Source: Vicinamibacterales bacterium (GTDB lineage: Bacteria; Acidobacteriota; Vicinamibacteria; Vicinamibacterales; JAMQPK01). From it: a DNA stretch of 64,000 bases. The DNA is taken from NCBI GenBank assembly GCA_023717525.1, contig JAMQPK010000194.1, positions 6,064 through 70,063 on the forward strand, read 5' to 3'. The notes under the pieces are model-generated. The model was not told where the DNA came from and did no database searches. It worked only from the letters and a program-made list of their open reading frames with translations. The position numbers were made by a program, and so were the translations under genes. Shown one piece after another: positions 1 through 61,219 of the stretch. The number at the start of each line of letters is the position of its first letter. Within the stretch, counting starts at the first letter, position 1.

Positions 1-1982
1 AACACCGTGTACGCATGACCCCATCGGCCTTCATCGCCTAGCGAGTCCCCATGGTCCGAGGTCAGCACAACGACGCTGTTCTCGTAGAGGCCCTGGTCTT
101 TCAGATACTGGATGAAGAGGCCGAAACAGGCGTCCAGCCGCTTCAGTCTCGCGGCGTAGGGTCGATAGAAGCCGGCGAGGTCGCCCTCCGGATGGTCGTC
201 ACGATCGATCGCGACGTTCGCAAGGTGAATGTCCTGCGGCTGCGTGAAGACGAACGCCGGGCGTCCGTCGCGGATCACATCTGGCAGGGCCCCACGGATT
301 TCCTCCAGCGTACGGCACGTCTCGTACTGGCGATTCTGTATGCCGGCATCGAGCTCGCGGATGTCAGGCAATGGCGTGAGCAGCTGACGAAGGATCGAAT
401 CGACGCTGATCAGCTGGTGATAGCCGCCGGCCGTCAGTAGTTTCTCCAGCGCGTTCATTGGAGCAAACGGGGTGACGTATTCCTTGTGCGGCAGAAGGGC
501 GCCAGACCAGATGGCCGGTTCGGAGAGTCCGGTGCCGCTGTACCGCGTATAGGCCTGCGTGAACGTCAAACTCTCGCGCGCAAACGCATCGATGGCGGGC
601 GTGAAACGCACCGCCGCGTTATACGGCGACAGGTAGTCGCGCCTGAGGCTGTCGATCACAAAGATAAAGACATGCGGCCGGCGACCCTGCAAAGGCTCCA
701 GAGGTACGACGAAGTCGACCGACGCTGGATGCGCGTTGACGATGTTGGAGTTGGCGACGAGGAAACTGGTGAGATCGGCAAGTTCAGTGGACGCCGGCGT
801 CAGCGTCCTTTCGAGCAGCATCAGCGATGGGTCGTAGGCGGCATAGCGGTCGACGGCCAGCGTGACGCGCGGCAGCGGAAGTGCACCGGCCGCGAGCACG
901 CGAACGGACACGATCAGCACCGACAGGCCGAGCGCGGCGGCAATAAAGGGGTCAGACCCCCTTGTGTGCCGAGGGGGTCTGACCCCTGCAAGGCTCGCGA
1001 ACGCGGCTATCCAGAAGGCAAAAGCGATCATCGTCTGGATGAGGAAGTACCAGTCCACCTTCTCAACGACGTGAATGGACGCGAGTGCGACGATCGGAAG
1101 CAACGTCAACGCTGTCAGGCGGGGCCAGGACCGGTCCACCTGCGTCGCTGGTGCGTCAGCCGCGCAGCGAAGGGAAAGCCCAGACCAGACAACGATGGCC
1201 GCTGCCATCACGACAGCCGCCAGAACTGCGCTCTCACCGCCGCGGAACGCGATCGCAGGGAAGACAATGCGTACGAGTACCAGCCAACCGGCGCCGCCGA
1301 CGCACGCGGCGATCAGCCAGTGCCGGAGCCTGGCGGACGGCGCCAGGGCGGAGATGGCACCGAGCGCGGCAAAGAGTACAGTTGCCACGGCAAGGTGCAG
1401 CGACAGGCTCCAGCCTACCGCCAGGGCGTAGTCGGTCGCACTGACTCGACTATCCGCCGCGCTGTAGATTCGGTACGCCGAGAGAACGGTGAAGACGACC
1501 CATACGTAGCAGGCGGTCGCCGCACACATACGGAGAAGCAGACGTCGCAGCAGATTGGGAGGGTGGGTGAATCGCTCCCAGGGAACTCTGCCGCGGGCAG
1601 CCAGGTGGTCGAGCATGGCAAAGGCGACAGGGATCGCAAGCGCCGCCACACCAACGACCAGACTGTGACGGCTGTTCACCAGCGTCGGGAGCACCGGATG
1701 AAGTGCGAGCCAGACGCCGATAGATCCACATGCGAAGACAATGGCCCATGCCGCGCGGCGCCCGGCCGCCAGGTCGTCGGCGACTGAAAGCGTGCCCAGG
1801 AGCAGCGCCGCCCAGTACAAGAAGTGATGGAAAAGGACGAAAAACTCCAGCCAGGCAAAAAGCTGGTGTCTAAGAAACTGAAGATAGGCAAAGGGGACGT
1901 AGCTCAGGACGCCGAAACAGGCGGTCAGTAGAAAGAAGACCAGGAAGGGGAGGCGGAGGCCGACCCGCAGGCGTGGAGTCAT
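1..1982 (-). CDS. membrane-anchored sulfatase-like hydrolase/transferase (alkaline-phosphatase superfamily, LTA-synthase/PEA-transferase-like); 3' end outside window
   Basis: Absent from the ORF track because it has no stop in the window. Hand translation of the minus strand from ATG at 1982 gives MTPRLRVGLRLPFLVFFLLTACFGVLSYVPF... About 330 aa are multi-TM, followed by ...VFIFVIDSLRRDYLSPYN... and ...VVLTSDHGDSLGDEGRWGHA, typical sulfatase-fold motifs. Confidence 0.7.
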   Translation of the reverse strand, partial: MTPRLRVGLRLPFLVFFLLTACFGVLSYVPFAYLQFLRHQLFAWLEFFVLFHHFLYWAALLLGTLSVADDLAAGRRAAWAIVFACGSIGVWLALHPVLPTLVNSRHSLVVGVAALAIPVAFAMLDHLAARGRVPWERFTHPPNLLRRLLLRMCAATACYVWVVFTVLSAYRIYSAADSRVSATDYALAVGWSLSLHLAVATVLFAALGAISALAPSARLRHWLIAACVGGAGWLVLVRIVFPAIAFRGGESAVLAAVVMAAAIVVWSGLSLRCAADAPATQVDRSWPRLTALTLLPIVALASIHVVEKVDWYFLIQTMIAFAFWIAAFASLAGVRPPRHTRGSDPFIAAALGLSVLIVSVRVLAAGALPLPRVTLAVDRYAAYDPSLMLLERTLTPASTELADLTSFLVANSNIVNAHPASVDFVVPLEPLQGRRPHVFIFVIDSLRRDYLSPYNAAVRFTPAIDAFARESLTFTQAYTRYSGTGLSEPAIWSGALLPHKEYVTPFAPMNALEKLLTAGGYHQLISVDSILRQLLTPLPDIRELDAGIQNRQYETCRTLEEIRGALPDVIRDGRPAFVFTQPQDIHLANVAIDRDDHPEGDLAGFYRPYAARLKRLDACFGLFIQYLKDQGLYENSVVVLTSDHGDSLGDEGRWGHAYTV

Positions 1983-5785: not shown

Positions 5786-6675
5786 TGCGACCGGGCCGGC
5801 CATGGGTTTACGGCGCTGCCATCACGCTGCTGATGGTTGTGGCGGTCGGCGTGCAGGTTGTGCGCGGGCGGACGTATGGGGACACGGCCCTCGACGATCG
5901 ACTGTTGTATCTGCGCTCGGGCACTGTCGCCGCGAAAGCCGCGCTGTCGTTCGACACGCTGCTCGCCGACGTCTACTGGATTCGGGCCTTGCAGCACTTC
6001 GGCAACGACCGGCTGCGGCCGAACATTCCTGGCAGGTTCGAGCTCCTCTATCCGCTGCTCGATCTCACGACGACCCTTGACCCCGACTTCGTGGTGGCGT
6101 ACCGCTTCGGCGCGATCTTTCTCTCGGAGCCCGATCCCGGCGGAGCCAGCCGCCCCGATCTCGCTATCGCGCTCCTGAAGAAAGGCGTGCGCACGACCAA
6201 CAGGTGGGAGTACTACTACGACATCGGGTTCGTGTATTACTGGAACCTGCATGATTACACGAACGCGGCCGACTGGTTCCGTCGCGGCGGCGATCTTCCT
6301 GGCGCGCCGTGGTGGCTCCGTACGTATGCGGCGGTGATGCTCACGAAAGGCGGCGACCGGCAGGCCTCGCGGTTCCTCTGGCAGGAGGTGCTGCAGCGAC
6401 CGGACACGAACGAATGGCTGCGGAATACGGCTCAAATGCGACTGCTGCAGCTCGACGCGCTCGATCAGATCGACATCCTCCGCCGTGCGGTCTCCGAGTT
6501 TCAGCGCCGAACGGGGAAACTTCCAGAACGCTGGCGGCAGCTTGTCGCGGCCGGCCTGCTGCGCGGAGAACCAGTTGACCCATCCGGCACGCCTTACACC
6601 CTCAATTTCGCGACCGGTGAAGTGAATGTGTCGGGCTACTCGCCGCTGCATCCGCTGCCAACCGAACCCCGCTGA
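5785..6675 (+). CDS. membrane-anchored helical-repeat (TPR-like) protein, function unknown
   Basis: In-frame ATG at 5785 overlaps the permease stop (TGATG). N-terminal TM segment VYGAAITLLMVVAVGVQVV, then W/Y-rich helical repeats. The track ORF from 5359 is an upstream extension lying inside the permease gene. Confidence 0.5.
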   Translation: MRPGRPWVYGAAITLLMVVAVGVQVVRGRTYGDTALDDRLLYLRSGTVAAKAALSFDTLLADVYWIRALQHFGNDRLRPNIPGRFELLYPLLDLTTTLDPDFVVAYRFGAIFLSEPDPGGASRPDLAIALLKKGVRTTNRWEYYYDIGFVYYWNLHDYTNAADWFRRGGDLPGAPWWLRTYAAVMLTKGGDRQASRFLWQEVLQRPDTNEWLRNTAQMRLLQLDALDQIDILRRAVSEFQRRTGKLPERWRQLVAAGLLRGEPVDPSGTPYTLNFATGEVNVSGYSPLHPLPTEPR

Positions 6676-17132: not shown

Positions 17133-18539
17133 TTGGCCCCACCAACGCCGCCCCAGCGCGCACCCATCCTTCTCGTCGAGGACAAGGACTCCCTTCGGCA
17201 GATGCTGCGTCTGGCCATTGAGGGCCAGGGGCACACCGTCATCGAAGCACGGGATCAGCCCGACGCCGTTCGGACGATGCAACAGTCCCGGCCGTCGCTC
17301 GTGTTGACGGATCTTCGGTTGCCGGAAGGCGACGGTTTCGGCGTCCTTCGGGCGGCGAAGGAACTTGATCCGCAGCTCCCTGTGATCGTGATGACGGCTT
17401 ACGGCAGTATTCAGGATGCCGTTGCGGCGATGAAAGAAGGGGCGCTCGATTTCCTGGCGAAACCTGTCGATCCCGATCACCTGCTGTTGATGGTCGAGCG
17501 CGCGCTGGCCCAACGGCGGTTGCTGACCGAATACATCCTGCTGAAGGAAGAGCTGGCCACGCGTAGGGGCGCGCCGCTGATTATCGGAGAGGCCCCGTCG
17601 CTGAAGAACGTCATCTCCGCTCTTCAACGGGCAGCGGGCACTGACGCGACCGTACTGCTCGAGGGTGAAAGCGGCACTGGCAAGGAGTTGTTCGCGCGTG
17701 CGCTTCACGCGCTCAGCGAACGGTCCGATGGACCATTCGTCGCCATCAACTGCGCGGCCATTCCCGACAACCTGCTCGAGACTGAATTGTTCGGTCACGA
17801 GAAGGGCGCCTTCACCGGCGCGGTGGCCCGCAAGCCGGGGAAATTCGAGCTCGCCCATCGCGGCACGCTGTTCCTCGACGAGATCGGAGACCTGCCGATC
17901 GGCCTGCAGGCGAAGATTCTGCGCGCGCTCGAAGAGCGCCGGTTCGAACGCGTCGGCGGCACGTCGTCGTTGCAGGTCGATGTGCGGATCGTCGCGGCGA
18001 CCAACAAGGGACTTCGCATGGCCGTCGCCGCGAAGCAGTTTCGCGAGGATCTCTACTTCCGGCTGTCGGTGTTTCCCATCACGATTCCACCGCTGCGCGA
18101 GCGCAAGGACGACATTCCGATTCTCGCCCGGCATTTCGTCGAGCGATTCTGCCGCGATCTGAACAAGAAGGTCGCGACCCTTGCGCCCGGGGCCATCGAA
18201 GAGCTGCAGCGCTACGGATGGCCCGGGAACGTGCGCGAGCTTCAGAACTGCATGGAGCGGTCGGTGATTCTCGCCGACACCGACACCATTCACGCCCGCC
18301 ATCTGAACCTGGCGCTGCATGCGCCCCTTCAGCCGGTCGAAGCGCCAAACCCATGGACGTCGTTCGACTTTTCGGGATCACTGGCGGACGTTGGCCGGCG
18401 CGCGCAGCTCGAAGCAGAGCGCCGTAAGATTACGCAGACGTTGCAGGAGACGGCGGGCAACAAGATGCGCGCAGCGGAAACCCTCGGGGTGAGCTACAAG
18501 GCGTTTCTGATGAAGATGAGGGAGTGCGGGATCGAATAG
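17133..18539 (+). CDS. sigma-54-dependent response regulator (NtrC family, PilR-like)
   Basis: Receiver domain (LLVEDKD...DLRLPEGDG). AAA+ domain with GESGTGKE, GAFTGA and Walker B LFLDEI. C-terminal Fis-type HTH (AAETLGVSYKAFLMKM). Confidence 0.9.
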   Translation: MAPPTPPQRAPILLVEDKDSLRQMLRLAIEGQGHTVIEARDQPDAVRTMQQSRPSLVLTDLRLPEGDGFGVLRAAKELDPQLPVIVMTAYGSIQDAVAAMKEGALDFLAKPVDPDHLLLMVERALAQRRLLTEYILLKEELATRRGAPLIIGEAPSLKNVISALQRAAGTDATVLLEGESGTGKELFARALHALSERSDGPFVAINCAAIPDNLLETELFGHEKGAFTGAVARKPGKFELAHRGTLFLDEIGDLPIGLQAKILRALEERRFERVGGTSSLQVDVRIVAATNKGLRMAVAAKQFREDLYFRLSVFPITIPPLRERKDDIPILARHFVERFCRDLNKKVATLAPGAIEELQRYGWPGNVRELQNCMERSVILADTDTIHARHLNLALHAPLQPVEAPNPWTSFDFSGSLADVGRRAQLEAERRKITQTLQETAGNKMRAAETLGVSYKAFLMKMRECGIE

Positions 18540-18580
18540 GGCAGAGGGCAGAGGGCAGAGGGCAGAGGGCAGAGGGCAAG
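18539..18580. repeat. tandem heptamer array (GGGCAGA) x5 plus a degenerate GGGCAAG
   Basis: Read directly. It starts on the last base of the response-regulator stop codon and is the inverted partner of 19088-19122. Confidence 0.9.
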
Positions 18581-18701
18581 AACTGCGACTTAGTTGCCTC
18601 TTCGGAATTGCACTAGCTGCGTTGCGCGGCACGGTACTACGCAGAATCAGCGGCGAAATCGCGTTGTACGGATCGGCATCGCCGATGAATCATCAGTCGG
18701 C

Positions 18702-19082
18702 ATGTCGAACTCTATCATCTGCGACCGTTCGTTTCAGTTTGCCTCGAGGACTCTGACACTGTGCGATCGGCTGTACAAGCGCGGTCCCTCTGGGCGCCAC
18801 CTGGCATCACAGCTCCTGAGCTGCGCGACGTCGATCGGCGCAAATGCCGAGGAAGCGCAAGAGGCTCAGACCAAAGCGGATTTCATTGCAAAGCTGAGTA
18901 TCTCGCGTAAGGAGGCGCGCGAAGCGACGTGGTGGCTGCGCCTCGTCGTGAAGAACAACCTGGCAACGGCTAACGACGTCGAGTGGGAGTTGAGCGAGGC
19001 GCGCCAGCTCCTCGCGATGATCAGAAGCGCGATCCTTACGGCGCGAGCGTCATCTGAACGCGGTGCGAATGCACGATCTTGA
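18702..19082 (+). CDS. four-helix-bundle protein (23S rRNA intervening-sequence protein family, PF05635/TIGR02436-like)
   Basis: MSNSIICDRSFQFASRTLTLCDRL...SIGANAEEAQEAQTKADFIAKLSISRKEAREATWWLRL. The ...NIAEG/ANAEEAQ and KE..ET.YWL pattern is characteristic of this family. Confidence 0.8.
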   Translation: MSNSIICDRSFQFASRTLTLCDRLYKRGPSGRHLASQLLSCATSIGANAEEAQEAQTKADFIAKLSISRKEAREATWWLRLVVKNNLATANDVEWELSEARQLLAMIRSAILTARASSERGANARS

Positions 19083-19087
19083 CGGCC

Positions 19088-19122
19088 CCTGCCCTCTGCC
19101 CTCTGCCCTCTGCCCTCTGCCC
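19088..19122. repeat. tandem heptamer array (TCTGCCC) x5, reverse complement of 18539-18580
   Basis: Read directly. It begins 6 nt after the four-helix-bundle stop and ends 12 nt before the aroB stop. Confidence 0.9.
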
Positions 19123-19134
19123 TGACATGGCTCT

Positions 19135-20214: not shown

Positions 20215-20228
20215 TGGTGTTTAGTATC

Positions 20229-20263
20229 GAGTGACGAGTGACGAGTGACGAGTGATAAGTAAT
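20229..20263. repeat. tandem heptamer array (GAGTGAC) x3 plus degenerate GAGTGAT and AAGTAAT
   Basis: Read directly, 15 nt upstream of the aroB start codon (aroB is on the minus strand). Inverted partner of 20690-20710. Confidence 0.85.
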
Positions 20264-20273
20264 CCCGAAGGAC

Positions 20274-20663
20274 TCATCTCTGAGTTTCCCTCTCCTGAAG
20301 GCTCCTTCGAAGAGCATTGAGCATCTTGCGAAGTTCAACAATCGCATCGAGGACCGGCTTCACGTCCGCGACTTTGCAGAATCCGAGCTCGAGAGCGATT
20401 GTGAGTTGGGTGTCCACCTCCGCAACCGAACCCTCGGCATTTGAAACAAAGTGAATAAATTCCCGTGTACTGTAGCGAGCTTGACCTTCAGCGATGTTCG
20501 AAGGCACCGAGACCGCCGCCCGTCGCATTTGGGATATCAGGCCGAATCTTTCGCCATCCGGAAAGGTTTGGCTTGTTTGGTAAACCAACTTCACGAGCGC
20601 GATCCCCTTTTGCCACACGAGAAGATCCCGATAGCTGCCCACTTTCGTCCGGCCGTTCGGCAT
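20274..20663 (-). CDS. four-helix-bundle protein (23S rRNA intervening-sequence protein family)
   Basis: SYRDLLVWQKGIALVKLVY...ISQMRRAAVSVPSNIAEGQARYSTREFIHFVSNAEGSVAEVDTQL is the family signature. Confidence 0.8.
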   Translation of the reverse strand: MPNGRTKVGSYRDLLVWQKGIALVKLVYQTSQTFPDGERFGLISQMRRAAVSVPSNIAEGQARYSTREFIHFVSNAEGSVAEVDTQLTIALELGFCKVADVKPVLDAIVELRKMLNALRRSLQERETQR

Positions 20664-20689
20664 GGTTCCCCACGTAACACTTGTCCCTT

Positions 20690-20710
20690 ATCACTCGTCA
20701 CTCGTCACTG
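20690..20710. repeat. tandem heptamer array ATCACTC GTCACTC GTCACTG, reverse complement of 20229-20263
   Basis: Read directly, 25 nt upstream of the nadB start. Confidence 0.85.
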
Positions 20711-20735
20711 TACCGATGCAGTAGGATAGCATCCG

Positions 20736-26972: not shown

Positions 26973-27210
26973 GTAAAAGGTAGGTCGAATACCACACTTA
27001 GCGTTCCAGTTTATCCTTGCCCCAGCATATGGGGCTTGTTACACTGGCGACCGTTTCGCGATCCCCGGGGCGCGCTTCGATTTCGAAGCGCAGGGGTCCA
27101 GATTCGGCCGCATTTGCACACCTCACAGGGTCTGATTCGTCTGGAGCGTCCCAGCCGCTCGTGGGTTTCGGTCTATCCGAAGCTTGCGCGCGGCGTTGTT
27201 TTGTACTTCT

Positions 27211-27245
27211 TAGTTTTCAGTTTTTAGTTTTCAGTTTCCAGTATC
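27211..27245. repeat. single-arm tandem heptamer array TAGTTTT CAGTTTT TAGTTTT CAGTTTC CAGTATC
   Basis: Read directly. It ends 6 nt before the smc ATG, and no inverted partner was found nearby. Confidence 0.8.
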
Positions 27246-30969: not shown

Positions 30970-31791
30970 ATGCCCCGTCAGCCCTCAGCCCTTAGCCCTC
31001 AGCCCTTGAAGGCATGGCTGGTCATCGTGCCCATGCTGGGCGCTGTCGCCTGCGATGTTCAGGTCCGCGAGGGAAACGTCAAGCTTGGCGTATTTTCCGC
31101 CGAGGCGAAGCAGGAGTGGATACGGGAGTATCCCTTGCCCGCCGGGGGCGAGGTGGAGATCGCGAACCTCAACGGGCCCATCGAACTCACCATGGGACCC
31201 GCGGGTCCTCTCGAGGTGCGGATCGACATCAGGGCAAAGTCGCTGACCGAGAGCATCGCCAGAGAGATCCTGAACAAGGGCAAGATTGAGGAGACGGTAT
31301 CGCTCGAACGGGTGAAGGTCGAGACGGTGGTTCCGAGAGGTATCCACGGGTCGTACGAAGCGCGCTACCAGGTCCGCGTTCCGCCTGGCGTCGCTGCCCA
31401 GGTTTCGACCACGAATGGATCGGTGAAAGCCGTCGGTCTCGCCGGCAAGCTGAAAGCGTCGGTGGTGAACGGAGCGGTTGAACTGACGGCGATCTCAGGG
31501 GCGCTCGATGCCGCGGTCGTGAACGGATCACTCGTGGTGAAGCTTGCGCAGGTGACGGCTCCGATACGGCTGGAGACCACCAATGGGCGGCTCACGCTGG
31601 AGCTGCCCAAGACGAGCCGGGCGGACCTCTCGGCGCGCGTCGTCAACGGCGGGTTGAGCGTGTCCGGGCTTCCCGTCGAGGAACCCGCCCAGCGGCGAAT
31701 CAGGAATCTCGAAGCGATGCTGAACGGCGGAGGCCCGACCGTCGATCTTCGAACCACAAATGGGCGGATCAGCATCACCGGCACGGAATGA
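30970..31791 (+). CDS. DUF4097-like beta-helix protein (putative lipoprotein)
   Basis: Repeated NG(S/A/G)(V/L) turns (TTNGSVKAV, VVNGAVEL, VVNGSLVV, TTNGRLTL, VVNGGLSV, TTNGRISI). The start is uncertain: a TTG at 31006 would give MKAWLVIVPMLGAVAC. Confidence 0.6.
   Translation: MPRQPSALSPQPLKAWLVIVPMLGAVACDVQVREGNVKLGVFSAEAKQEWIREYPLPAGGEVEIANLNGPIELTMGPAGPLEVRIDIRAKSLTESIAREILNKGKIEETVSLERVKVETVVPRGIHGSYEARYQVRVPPGVAAQVSTTNGSVKAVGLAGKLKASVVNGAVELTAISGALDAAVVNGSLVVKLAQVTAPIRLETTNGRLTLELPKTSRADLSARVVNGGLSVSGLPVEEPAQRRIRNLEAMLNGGGPTVDLRTTNGRISITGTE
30978..31005. repeat. tandem heptamer array TCAGCCC TCAGCCC TTAGCCC TCAGCCC
   Basis: Read directly. It lies either in the n-region of the predicted signal peptide (if the ATG at 30970 is used) or directly abuts a TTG start at 31006. 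Confidence 0.75.
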
Positions 31792-33798: not shown

Positions 33799-33846
33799 GA
33801 CGGTTCTCCTTACCGGGGGGGCTGGGTGAACCTGGACATTTGAAAA

Positions 33847-33890
33847 TTGAACATTGAAACATTGCAGCAATGCAATGTTTCAATGTTCCA
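33847..33890 (-). terminator. hairpin (18-bp perfect stem, 4-nt loop) built from GAACATT/GAAACATT units; probable pnp terminator
   Basis: GAACATTGAAACATTGCA-gcaa-TGCAATGTTTCAATGTTC. In minus sense it is followed by AAUUUUCAAAU. Confidence 0.55.
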
Positions 33891-33902
33891 GTGTAGCAGT
33901 CT

Positions 33903-38740: not shown

Positions 38741-38751
38741 AGGGTGAATCT

Positions 38752-38786
38752 GAAAGTAGAAAGTAGAAAGTAGAAACTGGAAAGTA
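38752..38786. repeat. single-arm tandem heptamer array GAAAGTA x3, GAAACTG, GAAAGTA
   Basis: Read directly, between the infB stop (38802) and the rbfA start (38740). In gene sense it reads UACUUUC CAGUUUC UACUUUC x3. Confidence 0.85.
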
Positions 38787-43509: not shown

Positions 43510-44916
43510 TCATACGGGATTTTCACCGACAACGGCCGCGTCGCGCACGAAAACGGGCCGCGCCACCAGGTCGTACTCGCGAGATCCCACGATTTCGGCC
43601 TCAAGCAGCGTGCCCGGCCGCAACGACGCTGTATCGATATCGGTCAGGTAAACCACCGCATCGATGTCCGGCGCCTGGCCCATCAACCGGCCCCGCCACA
43701 CCAGCTCATGCTCGGGCGACGGACCGTCAATCATCACCTTGACCTGCGTCCCGAGGCGCTTCTTCTGCGCTCGTGAGACGATGCGCTTCTGTTCGGCCAT
43801 GAGCGCGTTCCGGCGCCGCGTCTTGACGCTCGTCGGGACGTCATCGACCAGGTCGTGCGCCGTCGTGCCTTCCTCGTGGGAGTAGGTGAACACGCCCACG
43901 TGGTCGAAGCCGACGCTCCGGACAAAATCCAGAAGCATCGCGAAGTCTGCGTCCGTTTCTCCGGGAAACCCCACGATGAACGTGGTGCGCAGCGCGACGC
44001 CCGGTACCCGCGCCCGGATTCTGGCAAGGAGCAGCTCGTATCCCCGGCCGGTGCCCGGCCGCTTCATCCGACGCAGGACGTCATCCGATGCGTGCTGCAA
44101 AGGCAGATCGATGTACTTGCACACCTTGTCGCACGCCGCCATCGCATCGAGGATGTCGTCGGTGATCGTCGTCGGGTAGAGGTAGAGCAGTCGAATCCAG
44201 TCGATGCCATCGACCTCGTTCAGCTCTCGAAGAAGCTGTGGAAGGGCGGCGCCGTAGCCTGCGTCCCGTCCGTAGAAGGTCGTATCCTGCGAAATCAGGA
44301 TGATTTCCCGGATGCCTCGCGCGGCGAGCGCGCGCGCTTCCCGCACGATCTCGTCGACCGGCCGGCTGCGGTAGTGGCCACGCAGCGTCGGGATGATGCA
44401 GAACGAGCACTTGTAGTCGCAGCCTTCGGCAACCTTCACGTACGCGAAATGCCGGGGCGTCGCAAACACGCGAGGCGAGTCGGCGTCATACAGGTAGGTG
44501 GGAAGGCTCTGGGCTTTCGGCTTTGGGCTCTGGGCCTGGCCCACGAGCTGCAACGGGATGACGCTGCGACGGGTGTTCTCGATCGCGCCGACGATTTCCG
44601 GAACATCCCCTGTGCCGAGCACCGCGTCAATCTCCGGAATCTGCTGCTTCAGTTCGTCGCGATAGCGCTCGCCCAGGCAGCCGGTCACGACCAGGCGTTT
44701 GCACCGGCCGTGCTTCTTGAATTCGGCCAGCTCCAGGATCGTGTTGATCGATTCTTCCTTGGCCTTGTCGATAAACGCGCAGGTGTTGACGACCAGGACG
44801 TCAGCGTCAGCCGGATCGGCCGTCAACGTGTGGCCGCCCTCCTGCGACAAGCCCATCATGACCTCGGAGTCGACGAGGTTCTTGGGGCAGCCGAGCGACA
44901 CGAAACCTACTTTCAT
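43510..44916 (-). CDS. rimO: ribosomal protein S12 methylthiotransferase RimO
   Basis: MKVGFVSLGCPKNLVDSE N-terminus, radical-SAM motif EGCDYKCSFCIIP, and a C-terminal TRAM domain. Internal ATG at 44916. Confidence 0.85.
   Translation of the reverse strand: MKVGFVSLGCPKNLVDSEVMMGLSQEGGHTLTADPADADVLVVNTCAFIDKAKEESINTILELAEFKKHGRCKRLVVTGCLGERYRDELKQQIPEIDAVLGTGDVPEIVGAIENTRRSVIPLQLVGQAQSPKPKAQSLPTYLYDADSPRVFATPRHFAYVKVAEGCDYKCSFCIIPTLRGHYRSRPVDEIVREARALAARGIREIILISQDTTFYGRDAGYGAALPQLLRELNEVDGIDWIRLLYLYPTTITDDILDAMAACDKVCKYIDLPLQHASDDVLRRMKRPGTGRGYELLLARIRARVPGVALRTTFIVGFPGETDADFAMLLDFVRSVGFDHVGVFTYSHEEGTTAHDLVDDVPTSVKTRRRNALMAEQKRIVSRAQKKRLGTQVKVMIDGPSPEHELVWRGRLMGQAPDIDAVVYLTDIDTASLRPGTLLEAEIVGSREYDLVARPVFVRDAAVVGENPV
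44505..44539. repeat. heptamer run GGCTCTG GGCTTTC GGCTTTG GGCTCTG GGCCTGG inside rimO
   Basis: Read directly. It encodes GQAQSPKPKAQS in the linker between the MTTase N-domain and the radical-SAM domain. Confidence 0.7.
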
Positions 44917-49810: not shown

Positions 49811-49838
49811 AGGGAGGGGATTATGTCAGTTTTCGGTT

Positions 49839-49915
49839 AACTTGAAACTAGAAACTGGAAACTGGAAAGTAACTTCAAAACTTACTTTCCAGTTCCTAGT
49901 TCCCAGTTTCAAGTT
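49839..49915 (-). repeat. 34-bp hairpin made of GAAACTR/GAAAGTA heptamers and their complement
   Basis: AACTTGAAACTAGAAACTGGAAACTGGAAAGTAA - 9-nt loop - TTACTTTCCAGTTCCTAGTTCCCAGTTTCAAGTT, hand-paired. 30 Watson-Crick pairs plus 4 transition mispairs. Confidence 0.9.
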
Positions 49916-51045
49916 ACACGGATTCTGTATGAAAGTCCCTTAAGCGTGGGCTTTCCCACGTCCTTCCCAAACAGCAGAACCTTGTGCGTGCTGCCGAGCC
50001 CGCCGGGCAACAGCAGGGTCTTCAGCGCAAGACGGCGCTGCATGGCCGAAGGCTCGAACGACTGATCCAGCGCCATCATCTCGTCCAAACCTAATCCCAG
50101 CATGAAGTAGGTCTGATCGAGACGGCCGAGAGACTCGAGGCCGGCCTGTTCGCCAGCTCTCGTGACGGCGGTGAGGTCGACATGCGCCGTGATGTCGCAG
50201 TCGCCCGGAGTCTGCAGGACCTCGGCGAATGTCGTGTGCGATTTGAAGGTCGTCAGCGTGCCTGCAGAGTGCGACGCTCCGTAAAGCTCCTCGGCGCTGT
50301 GCCCGTAGTCGATCACCATCATGAAGCCCTTCTCGAGCGAACGCGCGGCAGTGCCGACCCAGTCTTCGGCGGCAAGGTTGACCTCTGCGCGCCAGCCCTG
50401 ATGCATTTTGGCGCCGGCGCGCGACAGGTAATCGGAGATGCGCGGTGTCGACAGCGTCTCAAGGTACTCGACGAATTGCCCGTCCCGCTCGTCGACGAAG
50501 ATCTCGCGCAGGCCGGCGTCCGTCATGGTGACGGCGTGAGTGGGAAACGCGTCCAGGAGCTCGTTGGCGAAGATAACGCCGTAGACGTGTTCCGGCAGCT
50601 CGGCCGAGCTGTGCACGAGATGCGACGCATGATCGCCAAGCGTTGCGCGCTGGGCGCTTCTCGCCGCGGCCGATCGTTCGACGAGCGAGAGCCGGATCGA
50701 CGCGTAGAGATCTGGATCTGTGCGCTGAAGGGCGTCGAGAACATCCTTCGATAACCGCCCGTTGCCGCTGCCGGCTTCGACGAGGTCGACGGCTTCAGGC
50801 TTCGGGCTTTGGGCTTTGGGTCCGATCAAGCGAAGCATTTCGGCGATCTGCTTGGCGAGCAGTTCGCCGAATACGGCTCCGACATCGACGCTCGTAAAAA
50901 AATCGCCCGCGCGTCCAGTTCGCTGGGCCGCGCGGGCGTAGTAGCCAAACTCGGGCTGGTAGAGTGAGAGGTCCATGAACTCTGCGAAGCTGATCGGTCC
51001 GCTTTCGCGGATCCTTTCACTGATCAGCTGGCGGAGAGGATTCAT
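49909..51045 (-). CDS. class I SAM-dependent methyltransferase (DUF185, MidA/NDUFAF7 family)
   Basis: ISFAEFMDLSLYQPEFGYYA...GDFFTSVDVG...LVEAGSGNGRL. Confidence 0.75.
   Translation of the reverse strand: MNPLRQLISERIRESGPISFAEFMDLSLYQPEFGYYARAAQRTGRAGDFFTSVDVGAVFGELLAKQIAEMLRLIGPKAQSPKPEAVDLVEAGSGNGRLSKDVLDALQRTDPDLYASIRLSLVERSAAARSAQRATLGDHASHLVHSSAELPEHVYGVIFANELLDAFPTHAVTMTDAGLREIFVDERDGQFVEYLETLSTPRISDYLSRAGAKMHQGWRAEVNLAAEDWVGTAARSLEKGFMMVIDYGHSAEELYGASHSAGTLTTFKSHTTFAEVLQTPGDCDITAHVDLTAVTRAGEQAGLESLGRLDQTYFMLGLGLDEMMALDQSFEPSAMQRRLALKTLLLPGGLGSTHKVLLFGKDVGKPTLKGLSYRIRVT
50791..50818. repeat. heptamer run GGCTTCA GGCTTCG GGCTTTG GGCTTTG inside the MidA-like gene
   Basis: Read directly. 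It encodes KAQSPKPEA. Confidence 0.7.
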
Positions 51046-51047
51046 GG

Positions 51048-51110
51048 CTTCGGACTCCGGGCTCCGGACTCCAGGCCCAAAGCCTGAAGCCCGAAGCCCG
51101 AAGTCCAGAG
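51048..51110 (-). repeat. 29-position hairpin of GGCTYCG-type heptamers immediately upstream of the MidA-like start codon
   Basis: Hand pairing of 51048-51076 with 51082-51110 and a 5-nt loop gives 22 Watson-Crick pairs. Five further positions are C-A/A-C on the plus strand, which become G-U on the minus strand. Confidence 0.85.
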
Positions 51111-51111
51111 A

Positions 51112-52680
51112 TTACTGCTTCCGCACCGTCACGAATTGTTCCTCGCCGTTACGAAGAATCAGCATGCCGACCGCCCGGCCCGCCGGTACTGCGCGCAGCG
51201 CCTGACCGGCTTCGCTCGCGTTCGATACCACCTGCCGGTTCACCTGCAGGATCACGTCGTTCGGCCGGAGCCAGCGCGCCGCCGGACTGTCCGGTTCGAC
51301 CTCGGTGATCACGGCGCCTCTGGTGCCGGCCGGAATTTCCAGCCGGCGCGCTACGTCGGGCGTGATGTTGTTGAGCGTGATCCCGAAACCCGCTCCCGTG
51401 TCATCGGGTGTTGTGTCGTTGCGCGACTGACGGTTGGTTTCGCTCTCGAGGTCGAGTTCTTCGACCTTCACGTTCAACGTGTGATCCTTGCCGTCGCGCT
51501 GCACTTTCACGGGTACCGTCGTGCCCGGAGCGGTGCGCACCACTTGCTGCACCAGATCATCGCTCTTCACGACTGGCTTGCCATTGAACTCGACGATCAC
51601 GTCACCCGGCTTGATACCGGCGAGCGCCGCGGGGCCGCCCGCAGGAACACTCGACACCAGGGCGCCTTTCCGTTCCTTGAGGTTCAGTGCTTCGACCTCT
51701 TCAGGCTGAATCGCCCTCACCAGGACGCCGATCCGCCCGCGTGTGATCTTGCCCGACCGAAGTCCCGGCAGCACCTCGCGCACGGTGTTGATCGGGATGG
51801 CGAACCCGATGCCGATGTTGCCGGCGCCGCCGCCGAGCATGTTCTGGTTGCTGTAGATGGCCGTATTGATGCCGATGACCTCCCCGCGGACATTCAGCAG
51901 CGGCCCGCCGGAGTTTCCGGGATTAATCGCCGCGTCGGTCTGCAGCACATTCGCTGAACGCTGTTCCGCGACGGGGAACGAGCGCTGGGTCGCACTGACG
52001 ACGCCCACGCTGATGGTGTGCGCGAGCCCGAACGGATTGCCGATCGCCATCACCCAGTCGCCGGGCTCCATCAAACTGGAGTCGCCAAACTTCGCCTCTG
52101 ACAGAGGACGGCTGGGCTTCTCGGTGAGCTGAATCAGCGCGCTGTCTGTCAGCGGATCACGTCCGACCACTTTGGCGGCGTAGTAGGAATCCTCGTCGTC
52201 GAAGAACTGCACCTCGATCTTCGTGGCGCCTTCCACGACGTGGTTGTTCGTCAGGATGTAGCCTTCCTTGTTGATGATGAAGCCCGACCCCGCGGCCCTG
52301 GTCGTTTGTTCGCGCGGCTGCCGCCGCTGCTGTGGAGCCGCGCCCGGGCCCCCGCCGCCGAAGAAGCGTTCCAGCAGGTCGTCGCTGCCTGGCGCACCGA
52401 AGAATTCGCTCAGGTCCTGAGTCCGCTGCCGCGATTCGGTGCGGATGCTGACGACCATCGGCGATGCCAGCTTCGCGATGTTGCGGAAGGTGGTGGCGTC
52501 GACCGGCCCGCCGAGCGGGGCGCTGTTGGTCGCCGGAATGGGCATCGTCTGTGCGGAGGAGGCGGGCGTCAGGTCGAGCCGTGAGGCGATGACCATGCCA
52601 ACCACCAGAGACGCGACAGCGATGAGGACGACGTAGAACGCCGTCGTTTTGCGAGAAGGAGCGGAGTCAAGCCAAGACAT
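51112..52680 (-). CDS. Do/HtrA-family periplasmic serine endopeptidase with two PDZ domains
   Basis: TNNHVV (His), D, and GNSGGPLLN (Ser) catalytic motifs, with two PDZ-like regions. Confidence 0.9.
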   Translation of the reverse strand: MSWLDSAPSRKTTAFYVVLIAVASLVVGMVIASRLDLTPASSAQTMPIPATNSAPLGGPVDATTFRNIAKLASPMVVSIRTESRQRTQDLSEFFGAPGSDDLLERFFGGGGPGAAPQQRRQPREQTTRAAGSGFIINKEGYILTNNHVVEGATKIEVQFFDDEDSYYAAKVVGRDPLTDSALIQLTEKPSRPLSEAKFGDSSLMEPGDWVMAIGNPFGLAHTISVGVVSATQRSFPVAEQRSANVLQTDAAINPGNSGGPLLNVRGEVIGINTAIYSNQNMLGGGAGNIGIGFAIPINTVREVLPGLRSGKITRGRIGVLVRAIQPEEVEALNLKERKGALVSSVPAGGPAALAGIKPGDVIVEFNGKPVVKSDDLVQQVVRTAPGTTVPVKVQRDGKDHTLNVKVEELDLESETNRQSRNDTTPDDTGAGFGITLNNITPDVARRLEIPAGTRGAVITEVEPDSPAARWLRPNDVILQVNRQVVSNASEAGQALRAVPAGRAVGMLILRNGEEQFVTVRKQ

Positions 52681-53984: not shown

Positions 53985-56177
53985 ATGCGCAGAGTTTCAT
54001 CATTGACGGCCGCGGGCCTCTTCGTGGCGACGGCGTTTGCCGCCGCCCAGGCACCGGCCCAGCCGCCGGTCCAGCCCCAGGACGGCTCGGCACAGGCGCC
54101 GGAAGTGACGTTCCGAGTCGAGGTGAACTACGTCGAGGAAGACGTGCGCGTTGTCGACCGCAACGGGAATTTCGTGCGTGGTCTGAAGCGCGAAGACTTT
54201 CTGCTGACGGAAGACAACAAGCCGCAGAAGGTGAATACGTTCGGCATGGTGGACATTCCGCTCACGCCGGTTCGCCGGCCCTTGTTCATGGGTCCCGATG
54301 CCATGCCGATCGAACCCGACGTCGCATCGAACGAACGGGTGATGGATGGACGGCTGTACCTTCTTTTGCTCGACGACTACCACACGGCCGCGCTCCGCTC
54401 GCAGAACGTGAAGAACCTGGCGCGGCGGTTTGTGCTCGAGAAGCTCGGCCCGAACGATCAGGCGGCGGTTGTTCCGACGAGCGGCCTGCTCAGCGGCTCG
54501 CAGGACTTCACACAGAATCGCCGGTTGCTGGTCGAGGCGATCAACAACTTCATCGGTCAGAAGCTCCCATCTGCAGCGGTCACGAAGACCGAGGCACGCG
54601 CTCGAGACGAAGCCAGTTCGCGGGCGCTCAGCGACGCCGAGGAGCCCGAGCAGATCACGCCCGAGAACCGCTATACCGAAGACATGGATGCGCCGGAGCG
54701 CACCTATAAGGCGCGCGCCGCGCTGAACTCGCTGCGCAACATCGCGGAATGGATGTCGGCAATCCAGGGGCGGCGCAAGGCCATCATCTACATCAGCGAA
54801 GGCGTGGACTACAACATGTACGACATGTTCGTGGGCTCGCGTCCCGAGATCTTCAATTTCGAAAACTTCAACATGATCCAGCAGGAAACCTGGGACACGA
54901 TTCACGCGGCGTCCAGGAGCAACGTGCAGATTTATCCGGTGGATCCGCGCGGACTCACGAGCATGGCGCAGGAGAACATCGAGATGGGCGGGCTGCCGCT
55001 GCTGGCGCTCCACCTGGGTCCCGAATCTCTCAACCAGGAACTGCAGACCTCGCAGATGAACCTTCGGCAACTCGCCGAGGAAACCGGCGGAGTCGCCGCC
55101 GTCGGCACCAACGACATGAACAGGGCGTTCGACCGCATCGTGCAGGAGAACAGCTCGTACTACGTGCTCGGTTACTACTCGTCGAATGAAAAGCGCGACG
55201 GCAAGATGCGCAATATCAGCGTGAAGGTGAACGGTTATCCCGACGCGCAAGTCACGTATCGAAAGCGGTACGCGGCGGCGCGCGGCAAGGCTCCCAGGAA
55301 CACGGCCGCGGGCAAGCCCGTCGATCCGGCTGCAGGGCTGACCGCCGAACTGATGAGCGCCATGGCGGCGCCGTTGCCGATGACGGGCATGCAGCTTCGC
55401 CTCCAGGCGGTTCCACAGAAGGGGACGGGCAAGAACGCGAGGCTCCGAGTGATCGTCCAAACTTCTGGAAAGGATCTCGTGTTCAAGGAGAACAACGGCG
55501 TCTTCAGCACGAAGCTGTCGTTCTCGATAGGCGTCTTCAATAAGCAGGGCAAGCCGGTATTCACCGAGCGGCCGGATGCCGACCTGAATCTGCGCCCGGA
55601 ATCGCATGATCGCGTCAGGCAGAACGGCGTGCGCGTGGTTCGGCAAATGTCGGTACCGCCCGGGCGGTACCAACTTCGCGTCGCAGCGCAGGACAGCTCG
55701 AAAGCGAAACAGGGCACGGCGATTCTCGACATCGATGTGCCCGACTTCACGAAACCCGATATCGCCATCAGCGGCGTTGCGCTGACGAGCTCGGCCGACC
55801 GATCGGTGCCAACCGGGAGCAGCGCGGACGTGATGACGTTCGAGGGCGGGTTGCCTGCGCCTCCGTCGACGCTGCGCGACTTTCCTTCGAACACCGAGCT
55901 TGCGGCCTTCGTCGAGGTGTACGACAACAAGCCGACACCAGCTCATCGAATCGACGTGACGGCGACCGTGAAGGCCGACGATGGCCGTGTCGTGTTTACC
56001 AACAGTCAGGACTACTCGACCGAGGAACTCCATGGCGCAGCCGGCGGATTCGGGTATTCGGTGCGTATGCCAATGACGGGATGGACGCCGGGACTGTATG
56101 TGCTCACGATCGATGCGAAGTCGCGCATCGGGAATCAGGCTCCCATCTCCAAAGTCATTCAGTTTCAGGTGAATTGA
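53985..56177 (+). CDS. VWA-domain protein of the VWFA-related Acidobacterial type (TIGR03436-like)
   Basis: Signal peptide, then FRVEVNYVEEDVRVVDRNGNFVRGLKREDFLLTEDNKPQKV, the characteristic N-terminal module. It is followed by a VWA-like region (LYLLLLDD...). Confidence 0.75.
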   Translation: MRRVSSLTAAGLFVATAFAAAQAPAQPPVQPQDGSAQAPEVTFRVEVNYVEEDVRVVDRNGNFVRGLKREDFLLTEDNKPQKVNTFGMVDIPLTPVRRPLFMGPDAMPIEPDVASNERVMDGRLYLLLLDDYHTAALRSQNVKNLARRFVLEKLGPNDQAAVVPTSGLLSGSQDFTQNRRLLVEAINNFIGQKLPSAAVTKTEARARDEASSRALSDAEEPEQITPENRYTEDMDAPERTYKARAALNSLRNIAEWMSAIQGRRKAIIYISEGVDYNMYDMFVGSRPEIFNFENFNMIQQETWDTIHAASRSNVQIYPVDPRGLTSMAQENIEMGGLPLLALHLGPESLNQELQTSQMNLRQLAEETGGVAAVGTNDMNRAFDRIVQENSSYYVLGYYSSNEKRDGKMRNISVKVNGYPDAQVTYRKRYAAARGKAPRNTAAGKPVDPAAGLTAELMSAMAAPLPMTGMQLRLQAVPQKGTGKNARLRVIVQTSGKDLVFKENNGVFSTKLSFSIGVFNKQGKPVFTERPDADLNLRPESHDRVRQNGVRVVRQMSVPPGRYQLRVAAQDSSKAKQGTAILDIDVPDFTKPDIAISGVALTSSADRSVPTGSSADVMTFEGGLPAPPSTLRDFPSNTELAAFVEVYDNKPTPAHRIDVTATVKADDGRVVFTNSQDYSTEELHGAAGGFGYSVRMPMTGWTPGLYVLTIDAKSRIGNQAPISKVIQFQVN

Positions 56178-56179
56178 GC

Positions 56180-56614
56180 ATGAAACGTTTCATCACGCTC
56201 CTGATGACGCTTGGGGCAGCGGTGCTGGCTCAGGCCGCCCAGGCTCCTGCGATTACGTCCATCGCTAAAGGGGACATGAGCGGCGTGCAGACGGCGCGCC
56301 AGGTCACGGTCCGCACGCTCGCCGAGTGGCAGAAGCTGTGGAAGGAACACGCGCCGGAAGAGAAGATGCCTGCCGTCGACTTCACCACACGCATGGTCGT
56401 CGGTATTTTTCTGGGATCGAAGCCGAGCGCCGGGTATGAAGTGGAGATCTTGAACGTGCGGCCGGAGGGAAAGGACCTCGTCGTCGAGTACGCTCAGAAA
56501 CAACCGGGGCGCGGCGCGATGGCCGCTCAGATTCTCGTCGAACCCTTCCACCTCGTCGCCGTCGCAAAACACGCCGGACCAGTGCGGTTCCTGCACGTGC
56601 CAGATACACGCTAG
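56180..56614 (+). CDS. PrcB_C-domain-like secreted protein
   Basis: Internal ATG gives the signal peptide MKRFITLLMTLGAAVLAQA. ...VDFTTRMVVGIFLGSKPSAGYEVEI... resembles the PrcB C-terminal domain. Confidence 0.55.
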   Translation: MKRFITLLMTLGAAVLAQAAQAPAITSIAKGDMSGVQTARQVTVRTLAEWQKLWKEHAPEEKMPAVDFTTRMVVGIFLGSKPSAGYEVEILNVRPEGKDLVVEYAQKQPGRGAMAAQILVEPFHLVAVAKHAGPVRFLHVPDTR

Positions 56615-56677
56615 TCCCTGGTCCTTTGTCCTTGGTCCTTTGTCCGGACCAAGAACGAAGGACCAAGGCCCAAGGAC
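56614..56677. repeat. imperfect inverted repeat GTCCYTK x4.5 / GGMCCAA x4.5 filling the gap between two convergent stop codons
   Basis: Hand pairing gives about 26 of 32 positions paired. Confidence 0.7.
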
Positions 56678-57169
56678 CTAAGAAGCTCCGGCTTTCACTG
56701 CCTTCAGCTTGACCGGCTTCACGGTGCCGTTGTTCTGCTCGAACTTGTATTGCGGCTGCGTCATCCCCGCCACCTTCGGCGACCTCAAGACGATCGTCGC
56801 CACGTCGAGCGGCTGGAGCGGCGTGCGGAGCCGCTGACGATCGCCGGTCCCCTGCAGAGGCTGTCCGGCCTTGTCGTACCAGAATTCCGTAATCTGCAGG
56901 CCGACGAGCGCGTTGGTCGCATGCATGTTCTTGACCTGGAAGGTCGTCACAATCGTGTTGCCTTCCAGCTTCGCCGACTGCATGAATCCCAACTCGGCGA
57001 CGCCGCGAAGGGGAGGCGCCGATTTCTTCAATACCGATGCCTGGGCCGAGGCTGGAGCCGCCGGAGCCTGAGCCGCCGGGGCCGCCGTTTGAGCCGACAG
57101 GGTCACCACCGCGGCTGAGGTCAGCACAGCGGCCGTTATCGCGATTCCAGACGCATATCGCACGCGCAT
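56678..57169 (-). CDS. secreted protein of unknown function
   Basis: Internal ATG with AAGGAG upstream. Signal peptide MRVRYASGIAITAAVLTSAAVVTLSAQ, an Ala/Pro-rich linker, and a beta-rich C-terminus. Confidence 0.5.
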   Translation of the reverse strand: MRVRYASGIAITAAVLTSAAVVTLSAQTAAPAAQAPAAPASAQASVLKKSAPPLRGVAELGFMQSAKLEGNTIVTTFQVKNMHATNALVGLQITEFWYDKAGQPLQGTGDRQRLRTPLQPLDVATIVLRSPKVAGMTQPQYKFEQNNGTVKPVKLKAVKAGAS

Positions 57170-57217
57170 CTTCAACTCCTTCGAATACAGGGTGGATCTG
57201 CCGGGCATTATAGGCGA

Positions 57218-61103: not shown

Positions 61104-61219
61104 CGTGGGAGAACGTGGGAGAACGTGGGAGAACGAAGGACAACGTAGGAGAGCGTAGGTCGCGTAGGAAAACGTGGGATTAACCCTACGTTCTCCTACG
61201 CCGCCTACGTTTTCCTACG
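61104..61219. repeat. tandem 9-10-nt array (CGTGGGAGAA x3, then degenerate CGTAGGNNNN units) whose inner four units pair with a downstream complementary array
   Basis: Read directly. Hand pairing of 61144-61178 with 61184-61219 gives a long imperfect stem. The units at 61104-61143 are unpaired. Confidence 0.85.

Follow-up and report, generated by a model that had tools for sequence, protein, structure and literature searches.

Among long simple-sequence repeats (SSRs), the heptamer is an over-represented class in many bacteria (Mrazek 2007, as cited in PMC4692102 and PMC4679880). Heptanucleotide arrays have been described in Xanthomonas, where they include inverted pairs of GGGAATC arrays (Rehm et al. 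2015, PMC4692102), in Geobacter (PMC2700814) and, before start codons, in Beggiatoaceae, cyanobacteria and Bacteroidetes (PMC4679880). Here we analyse a hairpin made of two inverted heptamer arrays that takes up the entire 66-nt spacer between an htrA-like and a midA-like gene in 64,000 nt of contig JAMQPK010000194.1 from a soil bacterium of the Vicinamibacterales (contig positions 6,064 to 70,063; this whole stretch is referred to as the window, and positions are counted from its first letter). Homologous junctions point to selection for pairing on the sense strand, and the hairpin is probably an insertion of repeat origin that is held folded. Like the known heptamer SSRs, the window's arrays consist of 3-6 tandem copies of 7-nt units, are mostly intergenic, vary in copy number among relatives and often form an inverted pair able to fold into a stem-loop, with period 7 exceeding the neighbouring periods. 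Unlike the known families, however, the units are locus-specific, with no one genome-wide family, and arrays are also found inside coding loops. Unlike the Xanthomonas pairs, moreover, the pair studied here sits in an operon junction and shows sense-specific conservation of pairing, which is not reported for Xanthomonas. Our literature search found no account of heptamer repeats in Acidobacteria; as far as that search shows, the Acidobacteriota, here represented by Vicinamibacteria, are a new host phylum for this class. What is novel relative to known heptamer repeats is the combination of locus-specific units, the new phylum, the operon-junction site and strand-specific covariation.

Other described systems resemble the element in part. 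Repetitive extragenic palindromic (REP) sequences and bacterial interspersed mosaic elements (BIMEs) are stable intercistronic palindromes of enterobacteria that number dozens to hundreds of nearly identical copies of 20-40 nt, share a conserved motif and are associated with a transposase, the REP-associated tyrosine transposase (RAYT). Like these, the htrA-midA hairpin is a stable structure in an operon transcript just past a stop codon, is present or absent between close relatives, and would be expected to shield the message upstream of it and to lower expression of the gene that follows. Unlike them, its arms are tandem arrays, and its unit family occurs only at this junction, in a loop of midA and in one related array across the ~400 kb examined; on the sample available, the hairpin does not appear to be a REP family. 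Known Shine-Dalgarno (SD) switches and thermometers are weak structures (a few to ~15 kcal/mol) with mismatches placed for melting and with conserved pairing of the SD. As in thermometers and in the translational-coupling hairpin model (PMC4538824), the ribosome-binding region of the downstream gene is paired, and an upstream ribosome at the adjacent stop codon could open the stem. Unlike thermometers and SD switches, the window stem has −54 kcal/mol over 27 pairs, a GGAG motif of unconserved position and no counterpart in most relatives. Finally, the 23S rRNA intervening sequences (IVSs) of Leptospira and Coxiella, which carry an S23p/PF05635 open reading frame (ORF), place an inverted-repeat stem round the insertion, are tolerated and are excised by RNase III. 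The window likewise contains two PF05635 ORFs, each flanked by inverted heptamer arrays, but the junction hairpin contains no ORF, has a 3-nt loop, lies in mRNA rather than rRNA and would be only a putative substrate for cleavage.

Both flanking genes are on the minus strand, as the original prediction for this site had stated. The htrA stop (51114-51112) and the midA start (51045-51043) were confirmed by homologues: the HtrA C-terminus '..VRKQ*' is kept in all orthologues, and the MidA N-terminus aligns with its homologues. In the direction of the genes, the junction reads as follows.

51112..52680, minus strand: HtrA-like protease gene (Trypsin_2 and two PDZ domains)
51112..51114, minus strand: htrA stop codon UAA; the 27-bp stem begins 4 nt downstream of it, and an outer 2-bp extension lies 1 nt away
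51081..51107, minus strand: 5' arm, in gene sense the heptamer array GGACUUC GGGCUUC GGGCUUC AGGCUUU
51078..51080, minus strand: loop of 3 nt in the minus-strand fold, UGG in gene sense
51051..51077, minus strand: 3' arm, reading UGGAGUC CGGAGCC CGGAGUC CG in gene sense, an inverted heptamer array with three GGAG
51055..51058, minus strand: the GGAG nearest the midA start, putative SD, 9 nt before the AUG (−13 to −10) and fully paired in the stem
51043..51045, minus strand: midA start codon AUG, 5 nt past the last pair of the 27-bp stem
49909..51045, minus strand: MidA-like methyltransferase gene (Methyltransf_28)

Pairing 51048+k with 51110−k over 29 positions (51048-51076 with 51082-51110) yields 23 Watson-Crick pairs, one more than the 22 originally counted over the same 29 positions. 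Mispairs of the C-A or A-C type on the plus strand at 51051, 51057, 51064, 51068 and 51071 become G-U on the minus strand, and a single position behaves in the opposite way (51050/51108, G-T on the plus strand); re-pairing thus reproduced the earlier tally of five against one. Further inward, 51077/51081 and 51078/51080 likewise change from C-A on the plus strand to G-U on the minus, and the minimum-energy fold of the minus strand therefore comprises 27 contiguous pairs (51107-51081 with 51077-51051) around a 3-nt loop (51080-51078), rather than the 5-nt loop first proposed. This fold reaches −53.7 kcal/mol (z −8.7), a value matched by 0 of 200 shuffles, compared with −36.5 kcal/mol (z −5.6) for the plus strand, in which the stem is interrupted by 7 internal mismatches. 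The two strands are therefore dissimilar in energy, and the claim that the transcribed strand folds better stands.

Tandem Repeats Finder (TRF) detected period-7 repeats at 51046-51076 (4.4 copies) and at 51075-51103 (4.1 copies), and an independent period scan agreed. The hairpin has the marks of an inverted-pair heptameric SSR, namely tandem units (at least ~3 copies), complementary inverted arrays, and variation in copy number and unit among relatives. The 7-nt periodicity of the wobbles at 51057, 51064 and 51071, which had been noticed, arises because both arms are heptamer arrays; what had escaped notice was this composition of both arms, which makes the hairpin one case of a genome-wide class.

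The strand asymmetry of the window hairpin is not significant when taken by itself: 5 of 6 transition mispairs favour one strand (one-sided p ~0.11), and three of those five are one and the same unit variant, recurring at 7-nt intervals. The comparison with orthologues therefore carries the weight. By its MidA homologues the window belongs to the Vicinamibacteria (Acidobacteriota), the best genome match first found having 79% identity. The order htrA-midA is conserved among homologues, and in most Vicinamibacterales the htrA stop and midA start overlap (TAATG, TAAGGTG) or lie ≤20 nt apart. A hairpin homologous to that of the window and built from GGCTYYG units, which we term type A, was found at the junction in loci L001, L019, L020/L021/L051/L053, L049 and L052. 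Every type-A hairpin folds better in sense than in antisense, as these hairpin energies show (kcal/mol, as are the fold energies that follow).

Window: sense −53.9, antisense −37.8
L001: sense −46.6, antisense −40.8
L019: sense −59.8, antisense −51.8
L020: sense −62.0, antisense −54.9
L049: sense −62.4, antisense −48.6
L052: sense −49.3, antisense −32.4

These type-A hairpins, one family in five lineages, align in register, and we imposed the window stem on the alignment and took its mirror image as the antisense alignment. Standard pairs occupied 90.5% of alignment cells in sense versus 67.0% in antisense. Pairs varying on one side only that nonetheless remained paired numbered 10 in sense versus 1 in antisense, and 14 pairs of the antisense alignment depart by unpaired cells only. 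Changes on both sides were seen at 7 pairs, with a covariation score reached by 0 of 500 shuffles. Counted by lineage, polymorphic pair positions comprised 16 with sense G-U versus 3 with sense A-C (sign test p = 0.004), and single positions displayed the series C-G / U-G / U-A and G-C / G-U / A-U. Strand-biased mutation, whether linked to transcription or to replication, is unlikely to have caused the G-U asymmetry, since the coding-strand skews at four-fold degenerate sites are ~0 (GC 0.016, TA 0.048).

Together, these comparisons indicate that sense-strand pairing is favoured for as long as the hairpin exists, and selection on the sense-strand fold is supported. The original prediction had called for such selection and had named loss of pairing in orthologous regions as evidence to the contrary; the stem is kept in L001, L019/L020/L053, L049 and L052. 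The idea of selection on the RNA fold thus gains support from the orthologues, whereas the asymmetry of the window alone does not provide it. More generally, the G-U strand asymmetry of one hairpin is weak evidence, and it was the orthologues that gave the real test.

The element itself turns over rapidly. At the same junction, L048 and L054 carry an unrelated and larger hairpin of 132-144 nt with GGTTCTG units (type B), and hairpin-less junctions occur in the same subclade in L046/L047 (10-nt spacer), L050 and L055 (4 nt). The closest relative is L046/L047, with 81% MidA identity and the 10-nt spacer in two independent samples, and a neighbour-joining tree of MidA places hairpin-less L046 as sister to the window and type-B L048 as sister to type-A L001. 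Whole heptamers are gained and lost: the difference between L019 and L020 amounts to entire 7-nt units, as expected from slippage, and both the number and the sequence of units differ among the window, L001, L049 and L052. The more distant L005 and L008 have one-armed GGTTCC arrays beginning at the local sequence TAAGGTTC. Because three junction states occur within one subclade, the htrA-midA hairpin is young and dispensable, being gained, lost and replaced between close relatives. To judge from these alignments, the junction was ancestrally overlapping or 0-10 nt long, and the hairpin arose recently in one Vicinamibacteria subclade. Geometry is constant in type A: the base of the stem follows the htrA stop by 1-7 nt and precedes the midA start by 3-9 nt, and the 3' arm always covers the 30S landing region (−33 to −7 in the window).

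We interpret the hairpin as a repeat-derived insertion in a tight, probably translationally coupled junction that is kept folded so that stop and start stay close, and we assign this interpretation a probability of roughly 0.55. The genes htrA and midA are probably co-transcribed, and the hairpin would thus be RNA within the operon transcript. An unstructured insert of 60-130 nt would part the htrA stop from the midA start and break coupling; a self-complementary insert could fold aside, leaving both codons at the stem base, ~10 nt apart. Selection would then act to keep the insertion folded, not to construct a regulator. As a side effect, the 27-bp stem would cover the midA ribosome landing site, including the GGAG, and free 30S initiation would probably be blocked. 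Translation of midA might then depend mainly on ribosomes coming from htrA that open the stem base at the stop codon or, by an alternative route, on RNase III cutting of the long duplex. The stop-hairpin-restart shunting of caulimoviruses resembles the behaviour proposed for this junction, although by analogy only. A scan of 51040-51115 found no promoter-like or terminator-like sites in or beside the spacer.

Two further features of the window bear on how this interpretation is weighed.

50791..50824, minus strand: coding array of the hairpin's unit family inside midA, 240 nt downstream, encoding GPKAQSPKPEA in a hypervariable loop
49838..49916, minus strand: second heptamer-array hairpin, with AACUGGA-type units over 35 positions, overlapping the midA stop and filling the junction to a downstream CYTH-domain gene

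A number of observations count against the folded-insertion interpretation. Co-transcription and coupling are deduced from synteny and spacing only, and a ribosome stopped at the UAA would open only ~5-8 bp of the 27-bp stem, which may be too few to expose the GGAG and the AUG. The sense-strand bias comes from one homologous family, in which some G-U states were inherited or amplified with the unit, so that the events depend partly on one another. Because the sense strand probably doubles as the lagging-strand template, a single-stranded DNA hairpin with G-T pairs is an alternative. Type-B hairpins are symmetric or better in antisense (L048, −73.8 in sense versus −82.2 in antisense; L054, −67.8 versus −71.0). 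At the midA stop, the window hairpin 49838-49916 folds better in sense (−48.0 versus −38.0), whereas its L054 orthologue is far better in antisense (−26.3 in sense versus −39.8). The decamer hairpin of the window at 61104-61219 is better on the non-transcribed strand (−54.5 in sense versus −65.3 in antisense). Across independent origins of heptamer hairpins, the preference for sense or antisense splits ~2:2. A general rule that heptamer hairpins must fold in the mRNA is not supported, and the G-U sense bias is not class-wide. We also considered pooling the G-U asymmetry over long ungapped stems from ~236 kb of Vicinamibacteria and later loci, but these contained too few independent mispaired stems with a defined sense.

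The coding array raises a further difficulty. Over 34 nt, 50791-50824 is 85% complementary to 51065-51098, which is mostly the 5' arm of the hairpin, and in a 361-nt context (50770-51130, minus strand) the predicted minimum-energy fold pairs the 5' arm with this array (−184.4 versus −176.5 with the local hairpin enforced). As isolated duplexes, the 5' arm scores −45.8 kcal/mol with the coding array versus −55.8 with its true 3' arm. Folding during transcription, together with ribosomes translating midA, would tip the balance towards the local hairpin. A conserved long-range switch between the 5' arm and the coding array was rejected, as the long-range fold is the minimum-energy state only in the window, while L001, L019, L020, L049 and L052 keep the local hairpin.

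The original prediction assigned selection on the RNA fold to regulation, regarding the hairpin as an evolved translational repressor or switch that buries the midA SD. We consider this unlikely, even though the GGAG at −13 to −10 and the entire segment from −33 to −7 are paired in a stem fully formed only on the mRNA strand, orthologues keep the sense-strand pairing, and the 3' arm ends at the stated 3-9 nt from the AUG in every type-A orthologue. GGAG occurs three times in the 3' arm at 7-nt spacing, one per unit, rather than once as originally reported before the start; all three are paired, and the claim that the GGAG lies inside the stem was correct. The 'SD' GGAG is thus a by-product of the repeat unit, and its distance is not conserved: the nearest GGAG lies ~12 nt from the AUG in L052, ~14 nt in L020 and >20 nt in L001 and L049, and L019 has none in the last ~30 nt. 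Within the window, an SD-like motif at −17 to −8 precedes just 11 of 45 predicted starts compared with a background of 7%, the start predictions being rough. The closest relative and most members of the order lack the hairpin, and L048/L054 have unrelated units in its place. The bulge-free stem of −54 kcal/mol offers no obvious signal-responsive opening, and departs from SD riboregulators and thermometers in that SD pairing is unconserved among orthologues and stability is not marginal (−53.7 kcal/mol, 27 contiguous pairs). Judged by these modelled energies, it would be far too stable for a reversible SD switch.

A neutral origin seems to us improbable to a similar degree. Here slippage would make an array, a template switch or quasi-palindrome correction would invert a copy, the arms would be copied at the DNA level and the G-U bias would stem from an ancestral difference between units. 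Arrays and palindromes do arise repeatedly at permissive sites, including the MidA protein loop; one-armed arrays have formed from local sequence in L005/L008; the three recurring G-U pairs of the window are one unit variant; other hairpins have no sense bias; and the element was lost tracelessly in L046. However, arm-to-arm copying of DNA would restore Watson-Crick pairs and favour neither strand, which is at odds with 16 positions toggling through G-U versus 3 through A-C, and also standing against a neutral origin are the lack of strand skew at four-fold sites and the seven pairs that changed on both sides.

More doubtful is a role in RNA processing or stability, as an RNase III site or a REP-like barrier to 3' exonucleases that separates the htrA and midA messages and sets their ratio. 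RNase III needs a duplex of ~20 bp, which the 27 uninterrupted pairs within the operon transcript exceed, and the PF05635 genes of the window, bracketed by inverted heptamer arrays, have the layout of 23S rRNA IVSs with RNase III-substrate stems. The stem begins 4 nt after the htrA stop, and REP elements at such a distance from a stop codon in Escherichia coli are reported to act on the gene that precedes them. Such a role is harder to reconcile with the lack of a U-tract or any other terminator feature, with the dispensability of the element in close relatives, and with a unit family that, over the ~400 kb covered, is not dispersed in the manner of REP sequences. In separate checks, a Rho-independent terminator was ruled out, the stem being followed by AAGCCAUGAAUCC and no U-tract; no Rfam family matched anywhere in the window at the gathering score (0 matches, Rfam 15); and an Rfam scan by E-value around the hairpin returned only sub-threshold look-alikes of microRNA (miRNA) precursors.

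Very unlikely, finally, is that the hairpin is an ORF-less remnant, akin to a miniature inverted-repeat transposable element (MITE), of a mobile PF05635 (23S rRNA IVS-protein) cassette with inverted heptamer-array ends: such arrays bracket both PF05635 genes of the window, homologues in unrelated contexts retain the bracket units AGTGAYG and CRTCACT (three contexts examined) and at least 2 unit types have hit the htrA-midA junction, but the loops of the junction hairpins are 3-13 nt with no ORF remnant, GGCTYYG units match no PF05635 bracket seen here, and the one-armed arrays from local sequence (L005/L008) fit an in-place origin.

If the hairpin is indeed an insertion kept folded at a coupled junction, a repeat-prone lineage can tolerate simple-sequence insertions at seemingly untouchable sites, such as a stop/start junction of a few bases and, in relatives, a protein loop beside a binding motif for S-adenosylmethionine (SAM), and the inserted RNA appears to be made harmless by folding on itself. 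The junction would then be a natural test bed for how a stable hairpin may preserve coupling, for stems as processing sites and for why 7-nt repeats are common in some bacteria.

Heptamer arrays are widespread in the window, which has a G+C content of 62.6% and contains 17 period-7 runs, whereas period 6 accounts for 5 and periods 8 and 9 for none. Nearly every array site has its own heptamer unit. Within the window, the unit family of the htrA-midA hairpin is restricted to 51046-51105 and 50791-50817, apart from a related array at 44505-44539, and across 68 loci it is nearly confined to the htrA-midA junction and the midA loop. Inverted array pairs folding into long hairpins were found at 33838-33895, 49838-49916 and 56614-56684, together with a period-10 case at 61104-61219; the other arrays are single, standing just before start codons or within coding sequence. 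A screen of intergenic gaps by folding energy and period-7 score was too noisy, because the simple gene caller that defined the gaps misses genes.

Hairpin 33838-33895 lies between two minus-strand genes and has ATTGAAA-type units with a perfect 18-bp core. The midA-stop hairpin has orthologues at L048 5764-5801 and L054 11136-11211, and in several relatives this junction holds an additional ORF (217-300 aa) that matches no Pfam family. Hairpin 56614-56684, with GGTCCTT units, occupies the gap between genes 53985..56177 (plus strand) and 56678..57208 (minus strand), which are convergent according to the rough caller; it comes directly after the stop of an uncalled plus-strand ORF of 177 aa (56081..56614) and before the stop of the minus-strand gene. 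The period-10 hairpin consists of CGTGGGAGAA x5 and its inverse, and fills the whole 134-nt spacer between two minus-strand genes. Single arrays that form no hairpin were found at 27210-27242, 30975-31007, 38750-38783 and 44505-44539. Of these four, three immediately precede a start codon, including one that separates an IF-2-sized gene from an RbfA-like ORF, and the remaining one (GGCTYTG units) is within coding sequence.

Two intergenic inserts of ~500 nt flank an aroB-like gene (18534-19125 and 20223-20711) and contain one ORF each of PF05635, the four-helix-bundle family of the 23S rRNA IVS protein (E 1.6e-16 and 1.6e-36). Their brackets are distant inverted heptamer arrays, (AGGGCAG)x6 with (CTGCCCT)x6 and (CGAGTGA)x4 with (TCACTCG)x3. 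The PF05635 loci covered besides the window were L056, L057 and L059-L068. Where homologues of the second PF05635 gene stand in unrelated contexts, the same bracket units recur, AGTGAYG before the gene and CRTCACT after it; one homologue is within a bacteriophage exclusion (BREX) operon, and others adjoin extracytoplasmic function (ECF) sigma factor or kinase genes. Many PF05635 homologues lie on contigs of just 0.5-1.3 kb. The PF05635 ORF and its arrays seem to travel together in an IVS-like cassette layout. A phmmer search found no further PF05635 genes in the fetched midA loci, and our literature search found nothing linking PF05635 to heptamer repeats. It is a speculative and rather improbable extension that heptamer-array hairpins, and the excess of 7-nt repeats in some bacteria, are footprints of PF05635 cassettes with inverted heptamer-array ends, the htrA-midA hairpin being a solo end-pair kept folded. 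If true, the cassette stem would let an insert sit in operons or rRNA, either because RNase III excises it or because the flanking stop and start codons stay close, and such a link, if general, would be worth much more than the hairpin itself.

In MidA, the loop between 'EMWRLL' and 'FDLVEAGSGNG', before the SAM-binding motif, is a hot spot at which the number of extra residues ranges from 0 to ~17 across the window and L001-L055. Heptamer arrays occupy it in the window, L008, L020, L023, L049 and L052, and near-perfect coding palindromes do so in L003/L022, L005, L006, L007, L012 and L004/L028. The two arms of these palindromes differ among lineages yet remain complementary, and some belong to families that recur elsewhere. 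Two dispersed palindrome families were seen in Vicinamibacterales, one of the form GGGGTCTGACCCCC..GGGGGTCAGACCCC and one of the type CGAAAA(A/C)GGCTCCGGGAGCC(T)TTTTCG, both REP-like in appearance and occurring in varied contexts, including the midA loop. Their sites comprise window 947-987; L004, L009, L012 (two sites) and L028; and L003, L005, L006, L007, L012, L014, L022 and L025.

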